Source: a bacterium (GTDB lineage: Bacteria; Hydrothermota; 32-111). From it: 64,000 bases of DNA. A program made the translations under genes and the position numbers. The number at the start of each line of letters is the position of its first letter. Position 1 is the first letter of the stretch. The notes beneath the pieces were generated by a model that saw nothing but the letters and a program-made list of their open reading frames with translations, ran no database searches and was not told the origin of the DNA. The DNA lies in the NCBI GenBank assembly GCA_050239825.1, contig JBFXGO010000001.1, positions 3,188 to 67,187 of the forward strand, given 5' to 3'. Of the stretch, positions 4,251 through 30,532 are shown one piece after another.

Positions 4251-4265
4251 GCCGGTACGCTAACA

Positions 4266-4996: not shown

Positions 4997-5040
4997 CTTC
5001 CCCTTGACATAATTAACATTAATATATATATTTATTACTT

Positions 5041-5418
5041 ATGGATAAAAAAATAATGAAGACACTCAAATCTCATGCAAAGAACAGCTACTCTCCATAC
5101 TCGAAATACAAGGTTGTAGCATTGCTCTTTGCAGAGAGCGGAAACGCATACATCGGAGTCAATGTGGAAAATGCCTCCTACTCTCTGACAATGTGCGCGG
5201 AGAGGAGCGCTCTTTTCACCGCTGTTTCAAATGGTGAAAGGAAATTCGAAGGGATAATAATCTATTCCCCTTCAAAGACTCTGCCATATCCCTGCGGGGC
5301 ATGTCTTCAGGCTCTGAGCGAATTCGCAGGAAAAGACTTCATGGTGACTGTGACAAACGGGAAGGTAGAGAAGAGCGGAAAGTTTAATGAGTTTTTTCCG
5401 CACTCATTTAAATTATGA
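5041..5418 (+). CDS. cdd: Cytidine deaminase.
   Basis: Zinc-binding motifs CAERSA and PCGACLQ. Length 125 aa is typical of homotetrameric CDA. Confidence 0.9.
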   Translation: MDKKIMKTLKSHAKNSYSPYSKYKVVALLFAESGNAYIGVNVENASYSLTMCAERSALFTAVSNGERKFEGIIIYSPSKTLPYPCGACLQALSEFAGKDFMVTVTNGKVEKSGKFNEFFPHSFKL

Positions 5419-6512: not shown

Positions 6513-6685
6513 TGCTTGATAAAAAACTCCTGGACATACTTGCATGTCCGAAGTGCAAGGGCGACCTTGATTATGACGCTGAGAAAGATATTCTCATATG
6601 CAGGAAAGATAAGATATACTTTGAAGTGAAAAACAACATCCCGATTCTCCTTTTAGACAAAGCAAAGAAGATTAATGAAGTTTAA
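6512..6685 (+). CDS. Trm112-like / UPF0434 (YcaR) family small zinc-ribbon protein (57 aa). It has a GTG start and is not in the ORF track.
   Basis: Translation VLDKKLLDILACPKCKGDLDYDAEKDILICRKDKIYFEVKNNIPILLLDKAKKINEV matches the family signature LLxILxCPxCKGxLxY...IP(I/V)LL. RBS AGGAGG precedes it. The start overlaps the upstream stop and the 3' end overlaps the next ATG. Confidence 0.6.
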   Translation: MLDKKLLDILACPKCKGDLDYDAEKDILICRKDKIYFEVKNNIPILLLDKAKKINEV

Positions 6686-10349: not shown

Positions 10350-11650
10350 AGATTTTAATCCGAATCCTCGCGTTTTGTCTGACTCTCTCTCTCTCCGCAG
10401 AAACAAATGTAATGGATATATTCATAGGCGCAGAGAGGGTCGGATGGTATCGGATGGAAACAAAAAAGAAGAATTCATTCATTGAGGTGACTGAAAATTC
10501 GAAGATGTCGATAACAGTCTATGGAAATACGATGAATGTTTCAGCCCACTCTTTTTCACTTTATGACACCAACTGGGCGATGATAAAATTCCTTTCAGGA
10601 GTGGAGAGTGAGCAACTCTCATTCTTTGTCAATGGATTCATAAAAGACGGAAAACTCACTGTCAAATCTGATGTTGCGCAGGGATACACCGAGGATGTAT
10701 TTGACATAGAGAACAAAATTCTTCTTTTCAATGTTGAATCAGCCACTATGGATCTGTTGGGAAAAGAGATTTATCAGTACAATCCATTAACCAGAAAACT
10801 GGAAAAGATAAAAGTAAAGGAGAAGGGAAGCGAGACTCTGAAGATAATGGAAAAATCGGTTCCGACTGATGTATACCAGTTTACAGGTGAAAGCGGAGAC
10901 TGGAAAGTTTATTTCAACAAGAAAGGCGAAGTCGTAAAGAGCATCTCGGGAGAGGGAATCTCTATGGTAAAGACTGATTCCGCGAGAGATATATCTGCTC
11001 CGATAGATATTCTAAGCTGGTTTTTCATTTCTGCAGAAGGTGATTTTAAGTCAATAGCAAAAGCAGAAAAAGCAGTCTTCATAATAACCGGCATAGAGAA
11101 TGACACTCTGTCAAATTACAGGCAGAAGCAGAGCATGGACACTTTGACTGTCTTTAAAAAGGCATTGTTTGTACCCGACACCCTCTCGGTTATGGACACA
11201 TTCTATCTTAAAGCGGGAAGCATGGTGAAGAATGCCGCCAAAGAGATAAGAAAGAAGGGGGATGCGGACTCATTGAAAATGATGCAGAATGCTCTTGCCT
11301 ATGTAAATAAAAAACTGAAGAAGGGGATCTATTCAGGTCTTCTTACAAGCGAGGAAATTTTAAAGCAAGGATACGGCGACTGCACCGAGCATGCGCAGGT
11401 TTTTGCTTCAATAGCCTCTGAGCTGGGTTTTGAAACCGATATTGTCTCCGGAATAGTTTATTCGAAGGATGGATTCTATTATCATGCATGGAACAGAATA
11501 CTTTATAAAAACAAAATTTACACTCTTGATGCGACATTCAATCAGTTTGAAGCAGATGTGTCGCACATACAGCTGTCAGAGGGATTCCCACCGATGAGAG
11601 TTCTCCTTTCAGATATGTCGGGAACCATATCGGTCAGGAGGATTAAATGA
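10346..11650 (+). CDS. Secreted transglutaminase-like cysteine peptidase domain protein.
   Basis: Signal peptide. Transglutaminase-core Cys-His-Asp arrangement: GYGDCTEHAQVF ... YYHAWNRI ... LDAT. Confidence 0.7.
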   Translation: MKILIRILAFCLTLSLSAETNVMDIFIGAERVGWYRMETKKKNSFIEVTENSKMSITVYGNTMNVSAHSFSLYDTNWAMIKFLSGVESEQLSFFVNGFIKDGKLTVKSDVAQGYTEDVFDIENKILLFNVESATMDLLGKEIYQYNPLTRKLEKIKVKEKGSETLKIMEKSVPTDVYQFTGESGDWKVYFNKKGEVVKSISGEGISMVKTDSARDISAPIDILSWFFISAEGDFKSIAKAEKAVFIITGIENDTLSNYRQKQSMDTLTVFKKALFVPDTLSVMDTFYLKAGSMVKNAAKEIRKKGDADSLKMMQNALAYVNKKLKKGIYSGLLTSEEILKQGYGDCTEHAQVFASIASELGFETDIVSGIVYSKDGFYYHAWNRILYKNKIYTLDATFNQFEADVSHIQLSEGFPPMRVLLSDMSGTISVRRIK

Positions 11651-12555
11651 AGAGATTGTTTCTCATCTTGATATCAGCAGTTTTCTTCATATCCGCAGAG
11701 AGCGATCTCATAGTGTATGGATTTTCTGATGACGCATCTCATTTTGCATTTGCCTATGAACCCAAAGATCCGACTGTTCAGAGCGGAGGATTAAAGATCT
11801 TAAGCATTAAAGAGAATTCTTTGACTGCGGATACTCTGCTTAATGAATTTGAAGACTCATACTCCTCTCTGAAAGATGTCTCTGATTTCTTCAACTTTCA
11901 TTTTAGGGAAGTTCTCGGCTTCAATGGCGAGACACTCTGCAAAGAGTTTTCAGGCAATGCACAAGACGGAGTGATAGATATTCTCGGCATAAATACAGGC
12001 AAAATAACATACTCGATAAACAAGTCTGTAAATGATTTCGGTTACTATGATTATACGACCACTGTTAGAGTTGAGGATAGACCACCTGTGATGTTCGACT
12101 CCAAACTGACCGATATTTACGGAGCCTATATGGCAGACGATTCTTTGTGCGTAATCATAACCAAAGGAATTGTCACCGGATTTGAAGGTACATTTTCGGA
12201 AGATTTCAACATTTTCTCTGTAAATGCAAAATCCGAGAATCTTTCCGATTCCTTTCTAAAGGAGAGGATGTTGGAGCTCAACATTAAAAAAGTGCGGAGA
12301 ATAATGGATGATTTCTTTTCAGAACATCATGAAATATACCCTGATAATGTCGACCTGCTCAACAGGTATGGAAAGGTCATTGAAAATCCGATCAATGAGA
12401 AGAATGAACAGATTGTCTTCTGCGGCAAACTGCCGAAATTCATTTCAAAGTATGAGGGCGCGATCTTCATAACCGTGGGCGACGCCAGGCAGTCATACAA
12501 AATATTTTACGGCGGAAAAAATGAATTCATAGAGGCAAAGGAGAAAGAAAAATGA
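11647..12555 (+). CDS. Hypothetical secreted protein.
   Basis: Signal peptide MKRLFLILISAVFFISAES. No recognisable motif. Translationally coupled to its neighbours. Confidence 0.45.
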   Translation: MKRLFLILISAVFFISAESDLIVYGFSDDASHFAFAYEPKDPTVQSGGLKILSIKENSLTADTLLNEFEDSYSSLKDVSDFFNFHFREVLGFNGETLCKEFSGNAQDGVIDILGINTGKITYSINKSVNDFGYYDYTTTVRVEDRPPVMFDSKLTDIYGAYMADDSLCVIITKGIVTGFEGTFSEDFNIFSVNAKSENLSDSFLKERMLELNIKKVRRIMDDFFSEHHEIYPDNVDLLNRYGKVIENPINEKNEQIVFCGKLPKFISKYEGAIFITVGDARQSYKIFYGGKNEFIEAKEKEK

Positions 12556-13217
12556 AACTGAATGATTTTATAGACCACACTCTGCTGAAGGCCGGAGCAA
12601 CCAAGGATGATATAAAGAGACTCTGCGATGAAGCGACGGCTCACAATTTTTATGCGGTCTGCGTAAATCCCTGCTGGGTGATGACAGTGAAGACTCTGCT
12701 TAAGGGAAGCAGTGTGAAAGTTGCGTCCGTAGTGGGATTTCCTCTCGGAGCAAACAGAATGGAGGTAAAGGTGAGGGAGACAATCATAGCCATAGAGGAC
12801 GGCGCGGATGAGATTGACATGGTTATCAATATTGGTGATTTCAAGGGCGGAAATTATGAATCGGTTCTCAATGAAATAATAGGAATCAGAGAGGCGTCCA
12901 AGGGGTCTCTTCTGAAGGTGATAGTTGAAACAGCGCTTCTTACGCGTGAGGAGAAAATAAAAGTAGCCGCGCTTGTTATTCAGGCAAAGGCAGATTTCAT
13001 CAAGACATCGACGGGATTTTCCACGGGTGGGGCGGCTCTTGAAGATGTGAAGCTGTTTAAGGAACTGTCCGGCGGGAAGATAAAGATAAAGGCGAGCGGC
13101 GGAATAAGGGATCTTAAGACTGCTGAGGCAATGATAAAAGAAGGCGCGGCAAGAATCGGATGCTCATCATCCGTTTCAATAATGGCGGAGCTTAATGAAC
13201 GCACCTCAAATAATTAG
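12552..13217 (+). CDS. deoC: Deoxyribose-phosphate aldolase.
   Basis: FYAVCVNPCWV, VGFPLGAN, Schiff-base lysine context FIKTSTGF, KIKASGGIR. Confidence 0.9.
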   Translation: MKLNDFIDHTLLKAGATKDDIKRLCDEATAHNFYAVCVNPCWVMTVKTLLKGSSVKVASVVGFPLGANRMEVKVRETIIAIEDGADEIDMVINIGDFKGGNYESVLNEIIGIREASKGSLLKVIVETALLTREEKIKVAALVIQAKADFIKTSTGFSTGGAALEDVKLFKELSGGKIKIKASGGIRDLKTAEAMIKEGAARIGCSSSVSIMAELNERTSNN

Positions 13218-14490
13218 GAAAAAGAGAGAGAGGGAGATTCTCTCTGCTGAAGAGATATTGTTTATGGTTGACGGATATGTCAGGGGTGATGTGCCGGATT
13301 ATCAGATGTCGGCTTTTTTAATGGCATCCTTTTTAAACGGTTTGAATGAAAGAGAGACTCTTCATCTGACAAAAGCGATGAGCGAATCAGGCGATGTGTA
13401 TGATTTTTCAGAAATAGATGGAATAAAGGTTGACAAACATTCAACCGGAGGAGTGGGAGACAAGGTGTCAATACCTCTTGCTCCGATTTTGGCTGAGCTT
13501 GGGTTTTATGTTCCCATGGTCTCCGGAAGAGGGCTCGGTCACACCGGAGGCACTCTCGACAAGCTGGAGTCAATAAAAGGATTCAATGTAAACCTCACAA
13601 AGGATGAATTTAAAAGAATATTGAAAACAAACAGAATGGCAATGGCAGGGCAGACAGAATCCTTTGTGCCGGCTGACAAGAAGATGTACGCTCTGAGGGA
13701 TGTTACTGCCACTGTGGAATCCATACCTCTTATCACAGCATCAATAATGAGCAAGAAGCTTTCAGAGGGGATAGATATGCTCTTTTTGGATGTAAAGACG
13801 GGCAACGGAGCATTCATGAAGGATTTTGAGGATGCAAAAATTCTTGCGGACAAGATGTATGAACTTGGAGAATCAATGGGAAAGAAGATGGCATATATGA
13901 TATCGGACATGTCGCAGCCTCTGGGTGATTTTGCAGGCAATGGCTGTGAAATTTTAGAGTCTGCCGGTATATTGAAAGGAGAAATAAAAAACAGAGCGGC
14001 GGAAATTGTCGAGGAGACCGCATGCATGATAATGAAGAAGAATTCAGTGGGGGCAGACGACAATGAAAGAAGAAAAAAATATATTGAAGTGATTGAAAGC
14101 GGCAGAGGATACGAAAGATTTGAGAAAATGATTTCCATACAGGGAGGAGATGTCAATTCAATCACGGATGAAGCTCTTCTGCACAAAAGGTCATTTGAAG
14201 TAAAGGCGGTAAAGAACGGATTTCTGACAGGATTTGACACATACAAAATAGGAATTGCGCTGATATATATGAAGGCCGGCAGATTTACAAAAGAGAGTTC
14301 GATAGACCACAGAGCGGGAATAAAGATAAACAAGAGAATCGGAGATATGGTTTCAAAAGGAGAGTCGGTGTTTACAGTCTTTTCCGAAGAGGGCATTGAA
14401 GAAGCTGAAAGAATACTGACCGAGTGTTTTACAATAGGCAGTGAAGAATGCAAGGAGACAAAATTAATAAAGTGCGTGAGGGGTGTGTGA
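13195..14490 (+). CDS. deoA: Thymidine / pyrimidine-nucleoside phosphorylase.
   Basis: Signature HSTGGVGDKVS, the N-terminal ...QMSAFLMA motif, and 431-aa length. Confidence 0.9.
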   Translation: MNAPQIIRKKREREILSAEEILFMVDGYVRGDVPDYQMSAFLMASFLNGLNERETLHLTKAMSESGDVYDFSEIDGIKVDKHSTGGVGDKVSIPLAPILAELGFYVPMVSGRGLGHTGGTLDKLESIKGFNVNLTKDEFKRILKTNRMAMAGQTESFVPADKKMYALRDVTATVESIPLITASIMSKKLSEGIDMLFLDVKTGNGAFMKDFEDAKILADKMYELGESMGKKMAYMISDMSQPLGDFAGNGCEILESAGILKGEIKNRAAEIVEETACMIMKKNSVGADDNERRKKYIEVIESGRGYERFEKMISIQGGDVNSITDEALLHKRSFEVKAVKNGFLTGFDTYKIGIALIYMKAGRFTKESSIDHRAGIKINKRIGDMVSKGESVFTVFSEEGIEEAERILTECFTIGSEECKETKLIKCVRGV

Positions 14491-16145
14491 TGAGAAAGAT
14501 TCTTTTATCGTTACTGATGTTTGTTTTGTTCCTAATCTCTTTTGGTTCGGATTTTATAGATATTAAAGAACTCGATAGAGGTATGAAGGGATACTGCATA
14601 ACTGTATTTGAAGAGACAAAGACCGACACATTTGAAGTGGAGGTTATTGATGTCATATCCGAAGGAGAAGCATCTGTCGAGATGGTTCTGGTTAAATGTT
14701 TCGGCGACAAAATCGAGAAGACCGGAATCGCGCAGGGAATGAGCGGAAGTCCGGTCTATTTCAACGGAAAGCTCTTCGGAAGCATGAGCTATACTTGGGA
14801 TAATCTGAAAGAGCCGATAGGAGGCGTTGTACCGATTAAAAGAATGCTTGAAATAGATTTATTTGAAAATCAAAATATGGATGTGAAGGGATACAAGCTC
14901 AAGGAGATAGCCGTGCCGGTAGTTCTCACCGGAGTAGATGAAAGGGTGCTTGAGGATCTGAGGGATGATGTTGGAGTTTTAAAATATGCGGTATCGGGAA
15001 AGAACAGCTTTGCGGCAAAAAATCTTTCCGGAGAATTGTCCCCCGGGAAAAGCATAGCAATTAAGCTTATAGAAGGCGACATGTCAGCCTCGGCAATTGG
15101 CACTGTGACATATGTTTCCGACAACAGAGTTTATTCTCTCGGTCATCCTTTCAATCTCAAAGGGAATGTAGAGTATCCGGTCTCCGAAGCTTACATATAC
15201 ACTGTTCTTCCAAGAAATGACATCTCCTATAAGATGGGTTTTCCTCTTTTAAAGAGCCTTGGCTGTGCGGTGCAGGACAGAACCTACGGAATACTCTCTT
15301 TAAGCGATAAGAGCGCGCGAATGGTAAATGTATCGTTCGTCATGAACAACGGCAAGAGAATCTCCATGAAATTTGCCAAGGAGAATGAAATAATAGCATC
15401 ATATCTTCCTCTGATGTTTGTCTCCGCAATCTCAAATAGCTACAAGACAGCCGGACCGATGACTGCCGACTATAAGATGAGCGTCTTTTCAAACAACAAA
15501 AAGAAGCTTGAATACAAAAACATGGTGACGGGAGAGAATCTGTTTTTGGGAATCTATTTTGACCTGCAATCCATTCTTTATTCATACTTCTACAATATGT
15601 ACGAAAATATCAATCCCGATTCCATTGTGATAGAGTCTTCGGTCAACGAAGAAATAAATCAGTATTTTATCTGGGACATCCGCACGGATAAGAAATATTA
15701 CAGTCCCGGGGAGACAGTCGAGGGAAATGTTCTTATGAAGACTTACAAGGGAAACAATGAGATGCAGCCCTTCTCATTTCTCATTCCCGATAATTGTCCG
15801 CTTGATTCAATGCTTCTCTATGTGGCTGGAGGGAAGAGCGACATAATGAGCGACGCCGCGAGAAGCGAAGCAAAATACCAGTACAAAAATATAAAAACTT
15901 TTGAAGATATTGTAAATAATGTCAATCCTTCAAACAGTATAGTTTTAAAGCTCTTCGGAAGAAGACGGGGATTTGTGGATAACAACAGGGAGTATTTCAA
16001 ATTGCCTCAAAGCTTTATCAACAAGCAGATTCTCTCCGGCAAAAAGAGCATAATGTCCGACATCCTCTATAAAAAGATTCTGCTTACAAACGGAGTAATT
16101 GAAGGTGAAGCAACCACGATTTTGAAAATCAGGAGGTCTCAATGA
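14490..16145 (+). CDS. Secreted putative serine peptidase, possibly S55/SpoIVB-like.
   Basis: Start ATG overlaps the deoA stop (TGATG). Signal/TM segment. Motif GIAQGMSGSPVY resembles the SpoIVB-family catalytic-serine context. Confidence 0.4.
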   Translation: MRKILLSLLMFVLFLISFGSDFIDIKELDRGMKGYCITVFEETKTDTFEVEVIDVISEGEASVEMVLVKCFGDKIEKTGIAQGMSGSPVYFNGKLFGSMSYTWDNLKEPIGGVVPIKRMLEIDLFENQNMDVKGYKLKEIAVPVVLTGVDERVLEDLRDDVGVLKYAVSGKNSFAAKNLSGELSPGKSIAIKLIEGDMSASAIGTVTYVSDNRVYSLGHPFNLKGNVEYPVSEAYIYTVLPRNDISYKMGFPLLKSLGCAVQDRTYGILSLSDKSARMVNVSFVMNNGKRISMKFAKENEIIASYLPLMFVSAISNSYKTAGPMTADYKMSVFSNNKKKLEYKNMVTGENLFLGIYFDLQSILYSYFYNMYENINPDSIVIESSVNEEINQYFIWDIRTDKKYYSPGETVEGNVLMKTYKGNNEMQPFSFLIPDNCPLDSMLLYVAGGKSDIMSDAARSEAKYQYKNIKTFEDIVNNVNPSNSIVLKLFGRRRGFVDNNREYFKLPQSFINKQILSGKKSIMSDILYKKILLTNGVIEGEATTILKIRRSQ

Positions 16146-18076
16146 AGAAATTATTATCGACAGTTCTGACACTCATTCTGTTCATCTTTGCCTTCTCGCT
16201 GGAGACAGGTAAGATGACTGATGACTTATACTCTTCCAGACAATTCCTTCAGCTTTCATCGGGAGTGGCATTGAATGAAAAATTTGCAATTCCTTCCTTT
16301 AAAGTTTCTCTCTTCAAAAATAATCTTGCGGAACCGGTATATTCTATGACTCTTCATAACGGGCATCTGATAGCCGGAGGCGGCGGGATAGGCAAAATAA
16401 CAGACCTTGAAGATAACTCTATTATGGCGGAATTCAGCGAAGGAGAGATTGTTTACACGGTTTTATCTCTTGACAGCAAGACACTGATTGCCGCTCTTCA
16501 ACCTAAGGGAATAATCGTGAAACTCTCTGAAAAGAAAGTTGACACTATATTCTCCTCGGAGGCGAGCATAAATCTTCTCAAAAAGACCGGAGGGGTTGTC
16601 TATGCGGCTGTCGGAAATGAAATCTATGTTTACTCTTCAGGCAAATTTGAAAAGCTTTTGAAAGTCAATGATAGAAATATTCTTTACTTTGAAGAAATAA
16701 ACGGCGACCTTTATATATCAACAGAGGGCAAAGGAAAACTGATAAAATACTCCTTCAAGGAGAAGACTCAGGAGGTAATATTCTCTCTCAACGGAGGAGA
16801 GATAGTTTTTTTCAAATTTGAAAAAGAGAGGATAGTTGTCGCGGCTAACTCTTTGGCAAGCGGTGGAGAGGGGATGGAAGTTTACAGCGGACTCCTGCTC
16901 TCCCTGAAAGACTCGGCTCCGGACACACTGGCGAAGGAGGATTTTCCATATTCATGCTGTGCAGAAGCACTCGGAGGCGTTCTTCTGACTGCATCTGTGC
17001 CCGGAAGGTGCTATTTCTATGATTTTGAAAACTATCTGTATCTCGGCTCATCGGAAAATGATTTCATAATGTCCTCATACGGAGATGAAAACATAGCATA
17101 TATCGCAACGGCGGAGGCAAATTCAATAATTAAACTCTCCGATGTAAACAAGGATGCGGAATTCTCTTCGTCTGTCATTGACCCTCAGAAAAACATAACA
17201 GTGACAGCTTTCTATCCGCGGACAAAGAAACCCGGCAAACTCTTCATAAGAACGGGAAATACATTTAATGTGGATTCAACATGGAGTCCTTTCATGCTTG
17301 TCAAGCAGCAGGAGAATGAATCTTTAAAAAATTCACGCTATTTACAGTACAAGTACAGGTTTTCAGGGATTGACGACACTCTTTACAATGTGTCATTCTT
17401 CTTCAAGACAGTCAATCACGCTCCCAAGTTCAGATCAATAAAAGTATATCCGGAGAGAGTGCTTCCCGACTATGCGGCTACTGTTGAATGGGATGCTGAG
17501 TTCTTGCAGAAGAGGTCATTCTATCCTGAGCTGAAGGACAACTCGATTTACAAATCAAAAAGAAATGTGAGATTTTTTCTTTGGGAATGTTTTGATATTG
17601 ATATGGACAAGCTTATATACGACATCTCTCTCATATCTTCTCAAAATACTTATCTGATTAAAAAATCATTTTTTGACTCATTTGCCGTGGTAAATCTGGA
17701 GTCATTTCCCGAAGGATGGTACAGAGCGAAGGTTGTGGCATCCGATTCCATCGAAAACAATGAGTATCTTAAAGGAATGATAGAAAGTGAAGAATTTTTC
17801 ATCGACAGGACACCGGCATCAATAATTGACGAATCCTTTGAGAAAAATATTCTTTCATTCACAGTAAAGGACAATTTTTCCTTGATTGACAATGTCGAGT
17901 ATTCGGTAAACGGAGAGAGCTATAAAAGAGTTTTGCCTCTTGATGGAGTGTGTGATTCAAAAACAGAGAAGTATGAAATAAAGATTGAGAGGGAAAAAGG
18001 GCAGACGCTTTCGATAATTGTAAAAGCAACAGATGCATCCGGCAATTATTCCGTAATGACCAAGGCAGTCAAGTGA
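16142..18076 (+). CDS. Hypothetical secreted protein (644 aa).
   Basis: AGGAGG RBS. Signal peptide. No recognisable catalytic motif. Confidence 0.45.
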   Translation: MKKLLSTVLTLILFIFAFSLETGKMTDDLYSSRQFLQLSSGVALNEKFAIPSFKVSLFKNNLAEPVYSMTLHNGHLIAGGGGIGKITDLEDNSIMAEFSEGEIVYTVLSLDSKTLIAALQPKGIIVKLSEKKVDTIFSSEASINLLKKTGGVVYAAVGNEIYVYSSGKFEKLLKVNDRNILYFEEINGDLYISTEGKGKLIKYSFKEKTQEVIFSLNGGEIVFFKFEKERIVVAANSLASGGEGMEVYSGLLLSLKDSAPDTLAKEDFPYSCCAEALGGVLLTASVPGRCYFYDFENYLYLGSSENDFIMSSYGDENIAYIATAEANSIIKLSDVNKDAEFSSSVIDPQKNITVTAFYPRTKKPGKLFIRTGNTFNVDSTWSPFMLVKQQENESLKNSRYLQYKYRFSGIDDTLYNVSFFFKTVNHAPKFRSIKVYPERVLPDYAATVEWDAEFLQKRSFYPELKDNSIYKSKRNVRFFLWECFDIDMDKLIYDISLISSQNTYLIKKSFFDSFAVVNLESFPEGWYRAKVVASDSIENNEYLKGMIESEEFFIDRTPASIIDESFEKNILSFTVKDNFSLIDNVEYSVNGESYKRVLPLDGVCDSKTEKYEIKIEREKGQTLSIIVKATDASGNYSVMTKAVK

Positions 18077-19083
18077 AAATTTTCGGAGCCGCCGGGTCTA
18101 TGAAGAGTACATTGAACTGCATAGACACGGAAAAAATTTACCTGAAAGCATTTAAATCCTGCATGGGATTTAAAACATTTCCTCTATCCGACGGCGGGGA
18201 CGGATTTCTTTTGACAATGAAGAGAATCTTTCCCGAGTTAAAAGAGAAAAAAATTAAAACTCTATCCTGCGACGGCAGGATAATCCATGCAAAAGTGCTA
18301 TGCGGCAAAGATGTTGCTTTCATAGAGTCAGCCCTTGTCTGCGGAGTTATGAAAAAACACATCCCGATAACCGACAGGTCGAGTGAGGGAGTTGGAATAT
18401 TGATTAAGGAACTGTATGACAAAAAGAGAAGAGTTGTCTTGGGCATAGGCGGCACATTGACATGCGACATAGGTTATGGAATGCTGAAGGGACTCGGCAT
18501 GGACTGCGAAGCATACATAGGCACCTCTGTTTTGAAAGATCTGCGCAATAGAAAGCCGTATCCCCTTCTGTGCGGAGTGGCGGATGTAGAATCTTTTCTT
18601 GAGGGTGAATACGGAGCGGTTATGTATCTTAAACAGAAGAAAGCGACATACTCACAGATAAAGAGAATGAAGGATTACCTGAATGAAACTTCAAAAAAAT
18701 TGAAATCGGAGAGGATGAAGCACTCGGGAGCAGGAGGCGGACTGGGGCTTGCGGTTATTCTTGCGGGAGGCAGAGTCATGGGTAATTTTGATTTTTTAAA
18801 TTCTGTTATAAACCTGAGAAGAGAGATAAAAGCTGCTGATGCCATTATTGTAAATGAGGGAAGTTTCGATAAGCAGTCGATGAGCGGAAAACTCACAGGC
18901 AGAATAGCTCAAGAGGCTTTGAAAGATGGAAAGAGAGTGGCGATACTTGCTGGGAATTTCGAAATAAAACCGAGGAAAACATTGTGCATAAAAGTCAACA
19001 TGCCTGTTAAAAAAGACAAAAGAAATTACAGAAATGAGTTTTTAAAATCGTCAATAAGAACAAAGGAGCTTTTGTATGGATGA
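18073..19083 (+). CDS. Glycerate kinase family protein.
   Basis: SDGGDGF (family ADGGEGT), GAGGGLGLAV, and C-terminal IIVNEGSFDKQSMSGKLTG (family ITGEGRxDxQSxxGK). Confidence 0.65.
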   Translation: MKIFGAAGSMKSTLNCIDTEKIYLKAFKSCMGFKTFPLSDGGDGFLLTMKRIFPELKEKKIKTLSCDGRIIHAKVLCGKDVAFIESALVCGVMKKHIPITDRSSEGVGILIKELYDKKRRVVLGIGGTLTCDIGYGMLKGLGMDCEAYIGTSVLKDLRNRKPYPLLCGVADVESFLEGEYGAVMYLKQKKATYSQIKRMKDYLNETSKKLKSERMKHSGAGGGLGLAVILAGGRVMGNFDFLNSVINLRREIKAADAIIVNEGSFDKQSMSGKLTGRIAQEALKDGKRVAILAGNFEIKPRKTLCIKVNMPVKKDKRNYRNEFLKSSIRTKELLYG

Positions 19084-20005
19084 AAGGATCTGTGTACTCT
19101 ATGGAGGACCTTCCAAAGAGAGCGAAGTATCAAGACGCTCTGCTCTAAGGATAAACCATGCTCTACTAAAGAAGAATTATAACTGCAAGCTTCTTGAATA
19201 CAACGAAGACATAGTGAATTCACTGAAAGGAAATTTTTCCGCAATCTTCAATATAATGCACGGCAGACCCGGAGAGGATGGACTCGTGCAGGGAATATTT
19301 GAACATCTGAAGATACCCTATACCGGCTCCGGAGTAATTCCAAGCGCAATCACGATGAATAAGTACATAAATCAGCAGGTCGTAAAATCTTTCGGTGTTC
19401 CGGTTCTTAAATCCGTTTATGTTAGCAGGGAGATTATCGAAAAAGATCCTGATATAATTGAGAAGAGTTTTTCATCTCCTGTGATACTGAAACCGAATAC
19501 AGGAGGTTCCTCCGTGGGAACATTCATTTCATCCTCCAAGGATGCATTTTTGAAATTAAAAGAAAAGACAGCAGAATTCGGCGACTATATTGTCGAAGAG
19601 TATGTGGAGGGCGGGACAGAGGTGACTGTCGGTGTAATCAAAGACAATGGCGTAAAGATTTTGACTCCTCTGCAGTTGATTCCCAAGAATGCATTTTATG
19701 ATTATCATGCAAAATATACTTCGGGAATGACTGATTTTGTAATGCCCCCGAAATTAAGGAAAGATGTTATAGAAAGAATGATGAACATAAGCAGAGAGAT
19801 CTTCATAAATCTGAGAATGGACACATTTGCAAGAATTGATTTTATTGTCACAAAGAACGATGAACTCTACGAGCTTGAAGTGAATTCGATACCCGGAATG
19901 ACCGACCTTTCCGATCTTCCGCAGGAGGCCGAGTTTGACGGAATTGAATACGGCGACCTTGTGGAAAAACTTTTAAAGACTGCGGGAGTGAACAAAGATG
20001 CTTGA
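19076..20005 (+). CDS. ddl: D-alanine--D-alanine ligase.
   Basis: N-terminal CVLYGGPSKESEVS, ATP-grasp motifs ILKPNTGGSSVG and EEYVEGGTEVTVGV, and FYDYHAKYTSG. Confidence 0.9.
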   Translation: MDERICVLYGGPSKESEVSRRSALRINHALLKKNYNCKLLEYNEDIVNSLKGNFSAIFNIMHGRPGEDGLVQGIFEHLKIPYTGSGVIPSAITMNKYINQQVVKSFGVPVLKSVYVSREIIEKDPDIIEKSFSSPVILKPNTGGSSVGTFISSSKDAFLKLKEKTAEFGDYIVEEYVEGGTEVTVGVIKDNGVKILTPLQLIPKNAFYDYHAKYTSGMTDFVMPPKLRKDVIERMMNISREIFINLRMDTFARIDFIVTKNDELYELEVNSIPGMTDLSDLPQEAEFDGIEYGDLVEKLLKTAGVNKDA

Positions 20006-21308
20006 CGGATTGACATCAAAAATAAATAAGATTTTTCAGAATCTGAAAAACAAGGGAAGGGTGACGGACGAGGATATAAAGCTAACCATGCGCGAGATAC
20101 GCCTGGTGCTTCTGGAATCGGATGTGAATTACCTTATAGTCAAGGATTTCATCAAGAGCGTTGAAGACGAAGTGAGGGGACAGGATGTTTTAAAATCTTT
20201 AAAGCCCGAGCACATAATCATCAAGGCAGTCAATGATAAGATGGTAGAGATGCTATCCCATGGTGACATGAGAATTCATTTTAAAGGAAATCCCTCGGTT
20301 GTGATGCTTGTCGGTTTGCAGGGAACGGGAAAAACCACAACTGCCGGAAAGCTCGGCGCTCTCTTCAACAAACAGAACAGGCGCACAATGCTTGTGCCTT
20401 GCGATGTGAAGAGGCCTGCGGCATATGAACAGCTCAAGCAGGTTGCTGAAAAGACAAAGTGCCTTTTCTTTGACAGAATGTCTGGCGACCCGCAAAAAAC
20501 CGTTGCGGATGCCTTAAAAGATGCGCAGGAAAAGAATATTGACACTCTGATTCTTGATACTGCAGGGAGGCTCCACATAGATGATGAACTGATGAATGAA
20601 CTTGTAAATTTAGAGAAAAAAATCAAACCATCCGAAATTCTTTATATCGGTGATTCCATGACCGGACAGGATGCTGTTAAGAGCGCCGCCGGTTTTAAGG
20701 AGAAACTGAATTTGACGGGGATTATTCTGACGAAAATGGATGGAGACCAAAAAGGAGGAGCGGCACTCTCAATAGTCAAGGTGGCAGACTGCCCTATAAA
20801 ATATATTTGCACAGGCGAACATGCTGACAAGATTGAGGAGTTTCATCCGGAGCGTCTTGTTTCAAGGATCCTTGGGATGGGGGATATTCTCTCTCTTGTG
20901 GAAAGAGCTGAGGACCTTGTCTCTAAGGAAGAAGCTGAGAATATGGAGAAGAAACTTCTTGAAGGAAGATTTGATTTTGAAGATTACCTTGGACAGATAA
21001 AACAGATAAAGAAGATGGGACCATTAAAAGAGATTCTTAAAATGATACCGGGAGTCGGAGCGAAAATAAAGACCACTGGCGAGGAGGAGGAGAATCTGAA
21101 AAAAGTAGAGGCGATAATTTCGTCTATGACAAAAAAAGAAAGAAAGAATCCGCTTCTTCTCAATAACAAAAGCAGGATTAAGAGAATCGCCTCAGGAAGC
21201 GGCACAAGCGTGGCAATGGTCAAATATGTCATAAATCAGCATAAGAATATGAAAAAGATGATGAGTATGTTCAAAACCAAGGGATTCAACCCCAATAATT
21301 TCCGATAA
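19998..21308 (+). CDS. ffh: Signal recognition particle protein Ffh.
   Basis: GTPase motifs GLQGTGKTTTAGKL, DTAGR and TKMDGD. Met-rich M-domain at the C-terminus. Confidence 0.95.
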   Translation: MLDGLTSKINKIFQNLKNKGRVTDEDIKLTMREIRLVLLESDVNYLIVKDFIKSVEDEVRGQDVLKSLKPEHIIIKAVNDKMVEMLSHGDMRIHFKGNPSVVMLVGLQGTGKTTTAGKLGALFNKQNRRTMLVPCDVKRPAAYEQLKQVAEKTKCLFFDRMSGDPQKTVADALKDAQEKNIDTLILDTAGRLHIDDELMNELVNLEKKIKPSEILYIGDSMTGQDAVKSAAGFKEKLNLTGIILTKMDGDQKGGAALSIVKVADCPIKYICTGEHADKIEEFHPERLVSRILGMGDILSLVERAEDLVSKEEAENMEKKLLEGRFDFEDYLGQIKQIKKMGPLKEILKMIPGVGAKIKTTGEEEENLKKVEAIISSMTKKERKNPLLLNNKSRIKRIASGSGTSVAMVKYVINQHKNMKKMMSMFKTKGFNPNNFR

Positions 21309-21407
21309 CCTTTATTTCAGCCATCCTGAACGAAAATTCTTAGGGACGGTGGTTTCAAAAAGCTGGGTTTTTCAAACATCAAAAACATGAGTAATCAAGA
21401 AATATTA

Positions 21408-22403
21408 GGGGCTGCACGCGGGCGTAGCGTCGGCTCACACACTCCGCTTCGCCGCTTTATCAAGATGGGATAGCGTAGCAAGGGGTTGCCCACTTGATGG
21501 GCGTCTTCGCGGAGCGTCCTCGCCGACTTTGAGCTTACGTGTTTCAATATTTGTTATGGGGACACACCGAAGGAATGTCCCCACATTGGCGAGGGTGTAA
21601 TGGACGCGAGCGTCCATGATAGAAAAGAACGGGTTGTACCAGAAGTTTTAGAAGATTACTGTAAAGACAAAATCTTACTCAACCGTGTCACCCTGAACTT
21701 TGCTTTAGTTATGACTATCGTGAAGGGTCTATCAGTTTATTGTTAATTGATTATTGAAGATTGTTCGGGGGCTGTTGTCGGGCGTAGCGTCAGCTCGCAC
21801 ACTCCGCTTCGCCGCTTAATCAAGATGGGTTAGCGGAGCAAGGGGTTGCCCACTTGATGGGCGTCTGCGCGGAGCGTCCTCGCCGACTTGTAGCTTTCAC
21901 TTTCAATAAGTTATTTAATTGATTGAATCTTCACAAAGCATTGGCTGGGGTGAAATGTGCGCGAGCGCACATAATAGACGTCTCGGGTTGCACCAGAACT
22001 TTGCGAAGATTATTGAAAAGAATAAATATTAATCAGCTCTCCGTATTAAGTTCATGGCACACGGCACAAGGCTCACGGCTGATTTGGTGGCTGCTGACGG
22101 GCGTAGCGTCGGCTCACACACTTCGCTTCGCCGCTTTATCAAGATGGGATGTTGTGGGGACACACCGAAGGAATGTCCCCAAACCACTTGATGGGCGTCT
22201 GCGCGGAGCGTCCTCGCCGACTTTGAGCTACGAGCATCAATAAGTTAATTAATTGCCTGTTGCAGTGGGGACACACCGAAGGAATGTCCCCACATTGGCG
22301 AGGGTGTAATGGACGCGAGCGTCCATGATAGGAAGAACGGGTTGCACCAGAAGTTTGTGAAGATTACTGTAAAGAATAAATATTAATCAGCTATCCGTAT
22401 TGT
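21408..22403. repeat. Cluster B of the same structured repeat family as cluster A: three core units and three or four accessory modules. Non-coding.
   Basis: Cores at about 21419, 21779 and 22098. Hairpins GGGGACACACCGAAGGAATGTCCCC at about 21551, 22157 and 22271. Module ggtgtaatggacgcgagcgtccatgatag at about 21590 and 22297, with a covarying variant ggtgaaatgtgcgcgagcgcacataatag at about 21944-22010. Confidence 0.85.
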
Positions 22404-22465
22404 ATTTAAACTCGTAACTGAATTATATGTCAGTTCATTATTTATGACAGTTTTGGAATCATAGA

Positions 22466-22498
22466 CAAAAAAAAGCCCCCTTGAAAGGGGGCTTTTTT
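22466..22498 (-). terminator. Rho-independent terminator downstream of the minus-strand ompA-like gene; it reads on both strands.
   Basis: aaaaaaaaGCCCCCTTgaaaAGGGGGCtttttt: perfect GC-rich 8-bp stem, GAAA loop, flanking A/T runs, immediately after the stop at 22507. Confidence 0.8.
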
Positions 22499-26232: not shown

Positions 26233-26503
26233 AAATGACTTTACAAAGATACTTGAAGATAAGAAGATAAAGATAAGCATGGACGGCAAGGGTCGTGCTG
26301 TGGATAATATCTTCATAGAGCGGTTGTGGAGAACAGTTAAATATGAGCATGCTTACATCTGGAGGTTTGATACGATTAAAGAGCTAAGAGAAGGACTAAA
26401 AGATTACTTTGATTACTATAACAATAAAAGAGAGCATCAATCATTAGGATACAAAACTCCATCTGAAGTTTATGGAGGTATTATAAATGTTCAAACAGCT
26501 TAA
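26233..26503 (+). pseudogene. IS3-family transposase (OrfB) C-terminal remnant.
   Basis: ...FTKILEDKKIKISMDGKGRAVDNIFIERLWRTVKYEHAY...YYNNKREHQSLGYKTPSEVY is the characteristic tail of the IS3 integrase-core domain. The DDE core and OrfA are missing. Confidence 0.75.
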
Positions 26504-26533
26504 TAATAAACACAATTTATCAAAATCTTGTGT

Positions 26534-26562
26534 CTTGACAGGAGAGACATTATCCAATAAAA
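26534..26562 (+). promoter_or_regulatory. Sigma70-type promoter TTGACA-N17-TAAAAT for the restriction-modification operon.
   Basis: Consensus -35 at 26534-26539 and -10 at 26557-26562, 25 nt upstream of the proposed ATG at 26588. Confidence 0.5.
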
Positions 26563-26587
26563 TATATATGTATATTTTAATTAAAAC

Positions 26588-28079
26588 TATGTCAAACAAT
26601 AATTCTAAATCAACAATAGGAAAAAACCTTAAAAAGATAAGGCCAAAAGAAGATGTTTCTCAGGATCGTTTATCCATGCTGACTGATTTGTCGCTGAATA
26701 CTATTGCTACAGTAGAATCTGGCTTGAATCCAAACCCAACTATTGAAACACCGACAAAAATTACCCAAGCATTAGATGTAAAAGTGGACGACCTAATTAA
26801 AAAAAATATGAGCCAAACTATTACTTCATTATTGAATAAAACAAAAATTGATCCCTCGTGGTCTTTTTCCGATAAAACAAGAAAAGATACGGCGTATATT
26901 ACGCATGGATATCATCGTTACCCCGCAAAATTTATTCCGCAAATAGTTTCTCGTTTGGCGGAAAAATATACGCGAATAGGTGATTTTATTGTTGATCCGT
27001 TCGGTGGTTGCGGAACAACCCTTGTTGAAGCAAAAGTTATGGGACGACCATCAATTGTCGTTGATATTAACCCCGTTGCTGTTTTGATTACGAAAGCAAA
27101 AATCACAGCAATTGATCCTGCTAAAATTGAAAAGGAATTTACAACTTTTCAAAAGAGATTGGAAACTTACAGCGAAAAAACAAAAGTAAAAGCCCCTAAA
27201 CACGAAAGAATTGACTATTGGTTTAAGCCAGAAGAAAAAAGAAAACTTGCTTTTATTCTTGCCGAGATTTCAAAAATAAAAGATCAAGATGTCCAAGATT
27301 TCTTTTTCTGCGGGTTTTCAAACATTCTCAAAAATTGCTCAATCTGGCTACAAAAAAGCAATAAACCAACGAGAGATTTTGATAAAAAGCCTTCAGAGCC
27401 GATTAAAGCATTTTTGAAACAAATAAAAATGATGTTGCGTGGTAATGCACGATTATTTGAATTGTTATCAGAAAAAGGTTATTTAAAAATTCCGAGCAAG
27501 GTGATTTGCACGGATGCAAGAACAATTCCGGCAAAAGATAATAGCGTTAGTTTGATTGTTACTTCGCCTCCTTATGTAACCTCTTACGAATACGCCGATT
27601 TACACCAGCTCACTGCTTTATGGTTAGAATATACCATAGATTTGAGCGACTTCCGAAAACGATTTATTGGCACTTCATATCACAACAAAAAAGATTTAAC
27701 TCTTAATAGCGTGATTGCAGAAAATATCAGAAAAAAATTGTTAGAAAAAGACAAAAAAACTGCCGAGGAAGTTTCAACATACTTTAGCGAAATGAATCAG
27801 GTATTTGTTGAAATGAAAAGAATATTAAAGAAAGGCGGGAAAACCTGTATTGTTATTGGCAATACGAGCTTAAAGGGCGTTGAAATACTTAATGCGGAGG
27901 TTTTTGTTGAGCAATTACAAAACTTGGGATTAAAAATCGCTGATATTATCAAAAGAGAAATTCCGTCAAAAAATTTGCCGTCCGTTCGAGACGAAAAGAC
28001 GGGTAAATTTGCGAGCATAAATGATAAAAATAGAGTTTCTGTTTATCCAACAGAATACATTTTGATAATGGAAAAATAA
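26588..28079 (+). CDS. DNA amino-methyltransferase (N6-adenine or N4-cytosine) with a fused N-terminal XRE-family HTH domain.
   Basis: HTH IGKNLKKIRPKEDVSQDRLSMLTDLSLNTIATVESG. AdoMet motif I HRYPAKFIPQIVSRL...GDFIVDPFGGCGTT. Catalytic motif IV IVTSPPY about 185 aa downstream. The ORF-track start at 26487 is rejected (it lies upstream of the promoter). Confidence 0.8.
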
Positions 28080-28083
28080 AACT

Positions 28084-28752
28084 ATGACTATAGACGACCT
28101 TATCAAAATTTACGAAACAAAAAAGAAAAAATATGGCATAGAAGCATATCGTCATATTTCAAATGTTTTGAAAGAAGCAAAGGAATTGCACAAAAAAGAT
28201 TTTACAGGTGATGATCATGAGCAATCATGGCGCGCTTTCAAGGGTAAAAATTTAGAAAAAATGATTGAATATATTATAACAGACGAGGTTAATGCTCTTG
28301 GGTTACAAGTAATAAATGGCAATAGCCTTGAAAGGACGAATGGATCAAACCTTTCAAAAGAGTTGAGTTTAGTTAAAAGAAATTTGATTGTTGATTATGG
28401 CGAGTTCGGCTCGCATTTGCCCGATGTAGATTTGATTATTTACGACCCAAACACAAGCAAAGTTGTCGCTGTTTTATCAAGCAAAGTAACTTTACGGGAA
28501 AGAATAGCCCAAACTGGTTATTGGAAAATAAAACTTGCCTCCGACGAAGCGACAAAACATATCAAAGTTTATTTCGTAACGCCTGATGAGGACGGAACGC
28601 TAACGATTAAAACACCTGCGAAGAAAGGACGAGCTATTGTTGAAGTAGACACAGACGGCAGTTATGTTTTGAGTGAGACGGACATTGAGGAAAGTAATAA
28701 AGTAAAAATGTTTGACAAGTTTATCGATGACTTGAAAAAGCTATTGAAGTAA
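28084..28752 (+). CDS. Putative type II restriction endonuclease (222 aa).
   Basis: Sandwiched between two MTase genes with 4-nt and 3-nt spacers. Acidic/lysine cluster ...YGEFGSHLPDVDLIIYDPNTSKVVAVLSSK... is compatible with a PD-(D/E)xK-like site. No other homology recognised. Confidence 0.45.
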   Translation: MTIDDLIKIYETKKKKYGIEAYRHISNVLKEAKELHKKDFTGDDHEQSWRAFKGKNLEKMIEYIITDEVNALGLQVINGNSLERTNGSNLSKELSLVKRNLIVDYGEFGSHLPDVDLIIYDPNTSKVVAVLSSKVTLRERIAQTGYWKIKLASDEATKHIKVYFVTPDEDGTLTIKTPAKKGRAIVEVDTDGSYVLSETDIEESNKVKMFDKFIDDLKKLLK

Positions 28753-28755
28753 TTT

Positions 28756-29847
28756 ATGACCCAGATCAAGAATGATAACCGAATGGGGTGGATCCGCAAT
28801 TTAGAGAAATTGAGCAAAAAAGAAACTGATAGCTATTTTGTTGAATATGAGATTGCGACAGAGTGCCATATAGCAGGTATACTGGATTACGGTACCGGTA
28901 TTATTTTGTGTGGAGGGTTAACCATAGAGAAAGATGAGAATGGGCTTTATCATTATTTACTAAAAGTAAGGTATGCGGGCGTAAAAGAACCTTATTACAA
29001 TAATAAAGCGAATAAAAAAGGATATTATTTTAAGGACGGCATACTTGGTGAACTCCTTTCCATTTTTTCTTTATACTTTCAATGTCGTTTTTATTTGATA
29101 GCAACTTTTACTGGAGAATTAACCAATCATGGATTAAGAATAAAAACAGGAAATAAGTTCATTTATAGAGCGTGTAATCCAGTCATTCACCCACAAATTT
29201 TTTCTTCCAAGAGTAGAGACCTTGCGATTGGATTATCCGATTTTTTAGATACAATAAAATCATTAGACACGAAGTATCATCAACAGTTTATTTTGACATG
29301 TTTTCACTATGCCCAATCATTAAAAGAAATAGGCGTTGACAGCGAAATGGTATTTATCAGGTTGGTATCCGCAATTGAATCAATTTCAAAATTTATCAAA
29401 TTGGATAAAAAAGTTGATTTATTTAATGGAAAAACTTTTGAAAATATTGTAAAGAGCGATGCTCTTTCAAAAACAGAAACGGAAGAATTAAAGAAAACTT
29501 TTGAGAATAGAAAATCAAAAGCAAGATTTATTACTTTTATTGAAAAATACTCAAGCGGATATTTTAAGGGCGGGAATTACAAAGCAAAACACTGCAAAAT
29601 CTCTAAAAAGCAGCTGCCAAAAGTTTTGCGGACTATTTATGACGCTCGCTCAGCTTATTTACATAACGGCGAGCCAATGTATTTAAGCCAGCCAATGTAT
29701 GGTGGAGAAAAATGGGACACTGATCCGAATATAGGCATGATAGTAGACAATAGGTCTTTCTCCGTTTCGCAAAAATTACCATTTACCTATTTTTTTGAAG
29801 GTTTAGTTAGACAATGTTTGTTGAATTTCTTGAAGCAAAAAAAATAA
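28756..29847 (+). CDS. Uncharacterised protein (363 aa) with a C-terminal Rx4H motif; possible HEPN/Abi-like nuclease.
   Basis: ...LRTIYDARSAYLHNGEP... contains R-x4-H. No MTase or PD-(D/E)xK motif. Embedded in the RM operon. Confidence 0.4.
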   Translation: MTQIKNDNRMGWIRNLEKLSKKETDSYFVEYEIATECHIAGILDYGTGIILCGGLTIEKDENGLYHYLLKVRYAGVKEPYYNNKANKKGYYFKDGILGELLSIFSLYFQCRFYLIATFTGELTNHGLRIKTGNKFIYRACNPVIHPQIFSSKSRDLAIGLSDFLDTIKSLDTKYHQQFILTCFHYAQSLKEIGVDSEMVFIRLVSAIESISKFIKLDKKVDLFNGKTFENIVKSDALSKTETEELKKTFENRKSKARFITFIEKYSSGYFKGGNYKAKHCKISKKQLPKVLRTIYDARSAYLHNGEPMYLSQPMYGGEKWDTDPNIGMIVDNRSFSVSQKLPFTYFFEGLVRQCLLNFLKQKK

Positions 29848-29848
29848 T

Positions 29849-30532
29849 ATGGATAAACTTCAAATAGAATCAACAACACTTTGGGATTTTCCGAGACAAA
29901 ATTATGGTGACAAGCCACATGGAAACAATAAATACAATGGCGTAACGCCGGCTTTTGTCATTTGGAATTTACTCCAAAGATATACCAAAGAGGGTGATTT
30001 AGTTGTCGATCCGATGTGCGGGAGCGGAACAACAATTGATGTTGCAAAAGAATTGAACCGAAAAGTAATCGGCTATGATTTGAATATTGTTAGGTCCGAT
30101 GTAATTAAAAACGATTCTCGGAAAATCCCGCTTGCGGACAATTCTGTTGATTTTGTTTTTATTGATTCACCATACTCCGATAATATTAATTATTCTGACA
30201 ACAAGGAATGTATCGGTAAAATTTCTTGCGAGAAAACAGAATTTTATGATGAATTAGAAAAAACCGCTTCCGAAATTGCAAGAATTTTGAAGCCAGGAAA
30301 AGTTATGGGCTGGGTTATTGCTGATCAATGGATTAAAAAGAAATTTACGGCTGTTGGATTTTTGATGTGGCAAAGATTGGAAAAACATTTTGAGCCTATG
30401 GATATTGTTTGTTTAACAAGACACAATCAAACGTCAAACACTGGAGTTTGGCACAACAGAGCAAGGCAGTTTAATTTTTATTTAAGAGGTTTTAAATATT
30501 TGTTTATAATGAGGAAGCCAGAAAATAAATAG
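29849..30532 (+). CDS. Small DNA amino-methyltransferase (227 aa).
   Basis: Motif I context NGVTPAFVIWNLLQRYTKEGDLVVDPMCGSGTT (pfam01555-like). Motif IV FIDSPY about 50 aa later. Then RILKPGKVMGWVI. Confidence 0.75.
   Translation: MDKLQIESTTLWDFPRQNYGDKPHGNNKYNGVTPAFVIWNLLQRYTKEGDLVVDPMCGSGTTIDVAKELNRKVIGYDLNIVRSDVIKNDSRKIPLADNSVDFVFIDSPYSDNINYSDNKECIGKISCEKTEFYDELEKTASEIARILKPGKVMGWVIADQWIKKKFTAVGFLMWQRLEKHFEPMDIVCLTRHNQTSNTGVWHNRARQFNFYLRGFKYLFIMRKPENK

Follow-up and report, generated by a model that had tools for sequence, protein, structure and literature searches.

We analysed a 64,000-nucleotide stretch of contig JBFXGO010000001.1 (assembly GCA_050239825.1), hereafter the window, which carries two arrays of intergenic hairpin repeats. 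Array R1 (4251–5003) lies between a gene for a TPR protein and the promoter of the cytidine deaminase gene cdd. Array R2 (21309–22465) is flanked on one side by the ffh (SRP54) stop codon and on the other by a bidirectional intrinsic terminator that ffh shares with a convergent OmpA-family gene. Both arrays stand just downstream of genes, each is co-oriented with its neighbouring gene, and both are richer in G+C (47–49%) than the window (39.8%). The terminator (22477–22498; 22466–22498 in the comparison with relatives) is outside the repeat and marks the right edge of the insertion described below. It has the form AAAAAGCCCCC(N4–5)GGGGGCTTTTTT and is kept between ffh and the OmpA-like gene in relatives with an Ffh identity of 79–86% (3459–3488 in L044 and 4826–4855 in L045; loci outside the window are given L numbers). 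The host Ffh shares 79% identity with its counterpart in a 'Candidatus Stahlbacteria' metagenome-assembled genome (MAG) and 64% with WOR-3 MAG proteins; by this sequence evidence, the uncultured host bacterium is a relative of WOR-3/'Candidatus Stahlbacteria'.

Each array is a mosaic put together from a small set of modules, every one of them on the + strand. The preliminary description of this DNA had singled out one module in which two bases on one arm of a short stem are changed together with their partners on the other arm. A search with the pattern ATGNNCGCGAGCGNNCAT finds exactly four + strand sites in the window, where 0.14 would be expected by chance and where none of 100 shuffles reaches the count. 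Three of the sites (4562–4579, 21600–21617, and 22309–22326) hold the common form ATGGACGCGAGCGTCCAT, which reads ATGGACG-CGAG-CGTCCAT, and the site at 21955–21972 holds the variant form ATGTGCGCGAGCGCACAT, which reads ATGTGCG-CGAG-CGCACAT. Both are perfect 7-bp stems around a CGAG loop. The change of GA to TG on the 5′ arm is mirrored exactly by TC to CA on the 3′ arm, so the reported double swap that keeps the helix is real. The variant falls inside the span first given for it (21944–22010), whereas the three common copies had been placed 11, 8, and 6 nt too high, and the schematic used for them (atgGAcgc-gag-gcgTCcat) contains one g too many and has no literal match. The variant hairpin folds as DNA at −6.9 kcal/mol. 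The five natural variants of the hairpin (see below) have near-equal stabilities of −6.3 to −6.9 kcal/mol, and artificial chimeras that combine one arm of each type reach only −0.5 to −1.0 kcal/mol. Downstream of the hairpin, the block GGGTTGCACCAGAA (21985–21998 in the variant copy) is present in all four window copies, with one C>T at 21631–21644, and the sequence to either side of it differs between copies, as had been noticed before. The variant copy is 75–82% identical to the other three window copies but matches a copy from another assembly (L007) at 88% identity. As judged by these identities, it is a member of a separate subfamily instead of a recently mutated sibling of those three, so the swaps are older than this array.

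The hairpin is the inner part of a module of ~100 nt, which we call B and which consists of a 13-bp outer stem (AATCTTC.AAA./.TTT..GAAGATT), the motif CATTGG, the inner hairpin, GGGTTGCACCAGAA, and a tail ending in TTA(A/C)TCA. The variant hairpin belongs to the third window copy (21926–22035), with outer-stem arms AATCTTCACAAAG (21926–21938) and CTTTGCGAAGATT (21999–22011) and a tail that ends in TTAATCA. Copy 1 (4533–4643) has its arms at 4533–4545 and 4607–4619 and its conserved block at 4593–4606. Copy 2 (21584–21681), in which an H hairpin abuts CATTGG, and copy 4 (22293–22389, block at 22339–22352) are without the 5′ outer-stem arm. The outer stem is thus missing from copies 2 and 4 and has one or two mismatches in copies 1 and 3, and it is perfect over 13 bp (AATCTTCTAAAAC...GTTTTAGAAGATT) in L037, L039, and L041.

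In total the window contains five A, five H, four B, and one E module, plus C and D linkers, and one composite unit measures ~355 nt. The A module is a long hairpin of ~100–115 nt with four helices (P1–P4) and an asymmetric 7×7 internal loop. Motif parsing places A copies at 4363–4476, 4716–4814, 21429–21527, 21789–21887, and 22108–22221; the copy at 21429–21527 shows the helices P1–P4 and the fixed strands TC(A/G)CACA and CGTCCTC. The H module, found by repeat matching, is a 25-nt hairpin (GGGGACA-CACCGAAGGAA-TGTCCCC) that sits between A and B (4507–4531, 21558–21582, and 22267–22291) or at the apex of A (4411–4435 and 22156–22180, within the first and last A copies). Module E (4840–4931) is a B-like paralogue with the same layout: an outer stem (GGACTCAAAAA...TTTTTGAGTCC), a CATTGG-type motif (CATTGA), an inner hairpin (GTGC-GGAGAT-GCAC), and the shared CTGTAAAG...TTAATCA tail. 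The C linker (repeat family D11) occupies 21681–21757 and 4262–4338. The D linker (repeat family D9), which carries 7-nt CAYGGCW iterons, occupies 22036–22088, 4644–4696, and 4932–4977, with a truncated start at 22390–22401. Array R2 therefore reads leader, A-H-B-C, A-B-D, A(H)-H-B, and R1 reads C-A(H)-H-B-D-A-E-D followed by a truncated start of A. Units run head-to-tail in a single orientation in the window and in L007, L030, and L039–L041. Nesting and mosaic exchange are evident both in the H hairpins at the apex of some A copies and in L007 and L030, where 5′ halves of A are followed by other elements. The D iterons stand in three to four copies just upstream of A modules (4660–4690, 4946–4969, and 22055–22085). 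On the minus strand of L037 (~1790–1830), GTAAGCTG is likewise repeated four times just upstream of an A module. Iterons beside a hairpin recall the origins of HUH/rolling-circle replication.

To gather further copies, a genome collection was scanned with the flank-anchored pattern CATTGGC...GGGTTGNACCAGAA, in which the hairpin was left free; this gave 33 chance matches and two real ones, both on contig JBFXJF010000028.1 (L007 and L030). Four more real contigs, every one from JGI sample 3300013137, came out of a metagenome scan whose only anchor lay downstream of the hairpin. The hairpins of the outside copies read ATGTGTG-CGAA-CACACAT, ATGGAGTC-TGC-GACTCCAT, and ATGGAGTC-GGC-GACTCCAT. From the three sources together, the B hairpin is known in five distinct sequences with four different stems, all of them perfectly Watson–Crick paired and none with a G-T intermediate; one of the four stems is 1 bp longer and closes a 3-nt loop. 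The preliminary description had proposed that its structural reading would fall if further copies carried unpaired changes as often as paired ones, and the additional copies favour structure, with none of the four stems broken.

Covariation was counted on the structure that RNAalifold derives from an alignment of seven A+B units, which recovers A (P1–P4), H, and the B hairpin. Over the whole unit, 96.3% of cells are paired, compared with 88.0 ± 0.9% in shuffled alignments and 30–43% in slid controls. Sixteen pairs are changed on both sides, compared with 6.3 ± 1.8 after shuffling (0 of 500 shuffles reach 16) and 0–4 in the slid controls. Within this alignment the 7-bp stem of the B hairpin is never broken, and four of the eight pairs in its helix are changed on both sides. 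The outer stem of B is compensatory as well, with AAAG/CTTT in window copy 3 and AAAC/GTTT in L037 and L039. A hand-anchored motif parse sorts the 11 complete A copies into three subfamilies, whose P1, P2, and P3 sequences are unrelated yet complementary. P1 occurs as GTCGGC/GCCGAC, GCTCAT/ATGAGC, and GTCTGC/GCAGGC, and P2 as CTCCGC/GCGGAG, TCAGCC/GGCTGA, and GCAGGC/GCCTGC. What stays fixed in A are the 7-nt strands of the internal loop, TC(G/A)CACA and C(G/A)TC(C/T)TC, together with GCGTAGC on the 5′ side and the 3′ tail. The helices P1–P3 comprise 191 pairs, of which 175 are Watson–Crick, 3 G-T, 3 A-C, and 10 other. More than one subfamily is found both on a single contig (L007 and L030) and within a single sample (L039–L041). 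An extra helix predicted by RNAalifold (GGTGTA/TGCACC) was not adopted: it has no covarying pairs, and its pairing is broken in the L041 type. We also note that the 3′ arms of the B hairpins (21955–21972) resemble the fixed loop strands of A (21795–21801 and 21875–21881), CGTCCAT being similar to CGTCCTC and CGCACAT to TCGCACA. The 5′ arms of the B hairpins could thus pair with the A loops, and the resemblance may be due to chance.

Contig JBFXJF010000028.1 is binned with a Vulcanibacillus (Firmicutes) MAG, yet it holds the same repeat family, and its G+C (37–38%) is similar to that of the window genome; either the contig is mis-binned or the family may have spread horizontally. A 3.8-kb segment occurs twice on this contig (L007 4096–7932 and L030 1984–5817) at 99.8% identity, and the same repeat modules border both copies. 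It carries AbiEi/AbiEii toxin–antitoxin genes and a DUF4143 AAA ATPase. The double segment may reflect a repeat-mediated duplication or mobilisation, or it may be an assembly artefact. Across the other loci, the neighbours of repeat copies are AbiE toxin–antitoxin genes, DUF4143 ATPase, and sugar enzymes.

Comparison with relatives reveals that both arrays are polymorphic for presence and absence at orthologous sites, as is expected of mobile repeats. The gap between ffh and the OmpA-like gene is 40–72 bp in five relatives (Ffh identity 79–86%) and ~1.2 kb in the window. Between the two genes the relatives have only the AAAAAGCCCCC...GGGGGCTTTTTT terminator, and the window gap consists of the R2 array save ~40 bp. 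One of the relatives with an empty site (L048) comes from the same sample that gave repeat-bearing contigs. The gap between the TPR gene and cdd is 113 bp in one relative and 790 bp in the window, and the two have only the cdd promoter region in common. In ~80 kb of DNA from the relatives, there is no copy of the repeat. An independent short-read Logan assembly of the same strain contains a contig that spans approximately 4902–21369 of the window and ends inside both arrays. Assemblies break in this way at multicopy repeats, which suggests that more copies exist elsewhere in the genome. The tetramer ATTG occurs on both sides of B copy 3 and is not repeated at the other copies. In one relative (L050, 5535–5570), the terminator after the TPR gene begins with GCTGGGGC, and the same octamer begins the first A leader of the window (4338–4345), a hint that the element may insert into terminator hairpins.

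We interpret the arrays as members of a non-autonomous, mobile, mosaic family of intergenic hairpin repeats, of the kind represented by repetitive extragenic palindromes (REP), bacterial interspersed mosaic elements (BIME), and REPINs, by BOX elements, or by miniature inverted-repeat transposable elements (MITE), in which the folded single strand is under constraint. We assign this interpretation a probability of approximately 0.6. The family is previously undescribed; the kind of element is already known. Retained across copies are a single-strand fold and a small set of invariant unpaired motifs (in A, TCGCACA and CGTCCTC; in B, CATTGG and GGGTTGCACCAGAA) and not the sequence of the stems, so that paired swaps such as GA/TC to TG/CA are the signature to be expected. 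A trans-acting enzyme whose gene would lie elsewhere in the genome would recognise the fold; the most plausible candidate is an HUH/Y1-type transposase that is specific for structure and acts on single-stranded DNA, comparable to those that act on REPs (the REP-associated tyrosine transposases, RAYT) and on the ends of IS200/IS605. The mobilising activity is something we infer. Several observations weigh against this interpretation. Genes for transposases, HUH proteins, RAYTs, or reverse transcriptases are found neither in the 64-kb window nor beside the copies in other loci. Only whole arrays are present or absent, and we see no clean target-site duplication and no insertion of a single unit. 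Features that define REPs are absent: there are no inverted REP/iREP pairs, and the B hairpin has no GTAG before it. The 5′ outer-stem arm is lacking in two of the four window B copies, and some copies are therefore probably dead. The evidence comes from ~9 B and 11 complete A copies drawn from three sources, and conserved unpaired motifs combined with helix covariation are also the signature of a functional RNA.

Which nucleic acid is constrained bears directly on this last point. Both strands fold into the same architecture, with z-scores of −3.2, −4.5, −7.2, and −5.4 for the minus strand and −2.2, −2.5, −4.5, and −4.35 for the plus strand. In A, the G-T and A-C mispairs are equal in number (3 each), as expected of a palindrome at the DNA level. 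These strand counts and fold z-scores decide neither for RNA nor for single-stranded DNA, and the single orientation of the units together with their co-orientation with genes fits a strand-specific insertion of single-stranded DNA and a role as RNA alike. The arrays lie between stop codons and terminators, and the 3′ untranslated RNAs of ffh and the TPR gene should therefore contain these hairpins as well. The modules could be functional structured RNAs, either cis-acting elements of the 3′ untranslated region that stabilise or process the upstream mRNA or multicopy small RNA genes; the covariation would then stem from selection on the RNA fold, and the arrays would have been built by local duplication. 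The strong helix covariation and the conserved unpaired motifs speak for such a role, as do the co-orientation of every array with its neighbouring gene, the position of R2 wholly within the ffh transcription unit (from stop codon to terminator, with no terminator in between), and a G-U-rich extra helix (CUGGGGUG with CGUCUCGG and variants) that forms only on the + strand, in three copies. However, that helix is not kept in the other subfamilies, the arrays are absent at the same loci in all relatives examined, and truncated and nested copies exist. The units contain no promoter-like site and have no Rfam match, folding is no poorer for the minus strand than for the plus strand, and G-T and A-C mispairs are balanced. 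On these grounds we regard an RNA function as the driver of conservation as unlikely.

It is less probable again that the paired changes are a mutational by-product, arising by template switching within a quasi-palindrome or by gene conversion between copies, whatever the function of the repeat. Template-switch mutation is documented to yield multibase compensatory changes and perfect stems in a single event (PMC8794818). For that reason, the argument of the preliminary description that two coordinated swaps are unlikely by drift does not by itself prove selection, while its claim of a conserved secondary structure is supported by the covariation. An adjacent dinucleotide changed on both arms, and B stems that are all perfect with no G-T intermediate, are what such a process would leave, and template switching may well be the source of the paired dinucleotide change. 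It does not explain the fixed unpaired motifs beside wholly different helices in the A subfamilies, the near-equal stability of the five natural hairpins, or the hairpin nature of every module in the family. In addition, uncompensated single mismatches persist in A (16 of 191 pairs), and correction is therefore not automatic. As a source of variants the process is compatible with selection. The preliminary description had also allowed for a protein-binding palindrome, that is, a double-stranded site for a dimeric, sequence-specific DNA-binding protein. The 18-nt hairpin is indeed a near-perfect palindrome in which only the two central bases are asymmetric. We nevertheless hold this to be very improbable, because the half-site sequence is not conserved (four stems, one of them 1 bp longer with a 3-nt loop) and the hairpin geometry is; moreover, the palindrome is nested in a second, 13-bp inverted repeat that covaries too. 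The reading as mobile hairpin repeats might be taken further. Modules A and B may serve as cis-acting ends for a mobile system of the WOR-3/Stahlbacteria lineage that has yet to be described and is either single-strand (HUH-type) or RNA-mediated; its coexisting subfamilies would exchange whole helices, while the 7-nt loop strands, CATTGG, and GGGTTGCACCAGAA stay fixed. We consider this extension doubtful. If it were true, stem sequence would act as a subfamily code, matching copies to cognate enzymes or blocking recombination between subfamilies.

Searches for known relatives gave no match at several levels. The window has no match in Rfam 15 at the gathering score, and permissive matches fall only on the terminator (~22466–22498); six related loci have no Rfam match at E ≤ 0.1. 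Collections of annotated plasmids and phages gave no match at distant sensitivity, two scans of viral collections returned nothing related, and translations of spurious open reading frames (ORFs) in the repeats gave no match in a protein database. No parent insertion sequence with matching ends was seen in any locus examined. Within the modules we find no promoter-like sites and no terminator-like ones save a weak match to the E hairpin (4874–4891). A role of the B hairpin as an intrinsic terminator was rejected, as no T-run follows it on either strand. The hairpin begins with ATG, and a small-ORF reading was considered and rejected: the 19-nt variants (ATG GAG TCT GCG ACT CCA TGA) do not keep the frame, and the C-termini differ. 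The heptamer CUGAUGA recalls a hammerhead ribozyme; the leader of A contains it in L007, L030, and L039 (CTGATGA at 2871–2877, 1513–1519, and ~703–709, respectively) and does not in the window copies. There is no GAAA core and no Rfam match, and this identity was also rejected. The R″/R′ boxes of integron attC sites have the consensus RYYYAAC...GTTRRRY, to which the stem feet of A (GTCGGC/GCCGAC) and B (CTAAAAC/GTTTTAG) do not conform. The sole tyrosine recombinase of the window (41806–42699) is XerC/D-like and 19 kb away, and no cassette ORFs lie between the repeats. RNA repeats of a type III toxin–antitoxin system were dismissed too: no endoribonuclease toxin gene lies downstream, R2 being followed by the terminator and the convergent OmpA-family gene and R1 by the cytidine deaminase.

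Two further features of the window are recorded here. A restriction–modification cluster at 26487–30532 encodes an HTH-fused N6/N4 DNA methylase, a BsaWI-like restriction endonuclease, a 363-aa ORF with no assignment, and a second N6/N4 methylase. At 62945–63760, a 126-bp sequence is repeated in tandem 6.5 times, with 86% matching. The array is probably the coding sequence for 42-aa repeats of LVIVD type in a + strand gene that is cut off by the window end; it would resemble the LVIVD protein encoded at 562–2736.

The arrays document a well-supported family of repeats under structural constraint, from a candidate phylum (WOR-3/'Stahlbacteria') in which practically no mobile DNA has been described. 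They offer a clean case of wholesale helix change around fixed loop motifs, suited to asking whether such a fold is read as DNA or as RNA, and by which enzyme. On the practical side, the repeats fragment short-read assemblies of these genomes and could serve as strain markers. No current view is overturned by them.

Among known systems, the closest parallel is with the REP/BIME/REPIN elements and RAYT (TnpA-REP) of Proteobacteria, which are intergenic hairpin repeats located mostly just 3′ of genes. REPs occur in high copy number and are confined to extragenic DNA; in the 64 kb examined here there are two arrays, both intergenic. For REPs and REPINs, compensatory changes within hairpins have been reported, along with clustering in tandem and insertion into copies already present (PMC3116915). 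A REP is a palindrome preceded by GTAG; RAYT recognises and cuts it in single-stranded form, and REPs form mosaic arrays with linker motifs (PMC8266576). The repeats described here have compensatory hairpin changes, tandem clusters, insertion into or next to existing copies, and linker mosaics in common with them. A GTAG stands 1 nt 5′ of helix P1 in 9 of the 11 A copies, but the A palindrome measures ~100–115 nt, compared with 20–50 nt for a REP. The B hairpin (18–19 nt) is preceded by GTGTA, GTGAA, GTGGA, or GCTTA and not by GTAG. All window copies of A (5), B (4), and H (5) are direct and on the + strand, with no inverted REP/iREP pairs. A has four helices and an asymmetric 7×7 internal loop where REPs form a symmetric doublet, and the units are ~355 nt long. 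A cognate RAYT gene is usually flanked by REPs; no RAYT gene lies in the 64-kb window or beside the other copies, and the host is WOR-3-like. Membership in the REP/BIME class is thus not established.

BOX elements of Streptococcus pneumoniae (boxA-boxB-boxC), enterobacterial repetitive intergenic consensus (ERIC) sequences, and Correia-type repeats are non-coding intergenic repeats of modular build, with a small number of module types that vary in how often they occur. Stable stem-loops are predicted for them, and transcription together with adjacent genes is frequent. The likeness lies in their modular intergenic character; there is no sequence similarity, the set and sizes of the modules differ, and we see no sign of a regulatory effect here. 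In comparison with MITEs and the IS200/IS605-derived palindrome-associated transposable elements (PATE), no consistent target-site duplication is seen here and no parent insertion sequence was found in the loci examined, and the composite head-to-tail arrays differ from single insertions. The repeats do resemble these elements in being short, non-coding, and without a transposase and in their insertion polymorphism, and the B and E modules are bounded by inverted repeats of 11–13 bp, in the manner of terminal inverted repeats. Their subterminal hairpins, short guide-like motifs, and strict orientation bias also recall the ends of IS200/IS605 elements.

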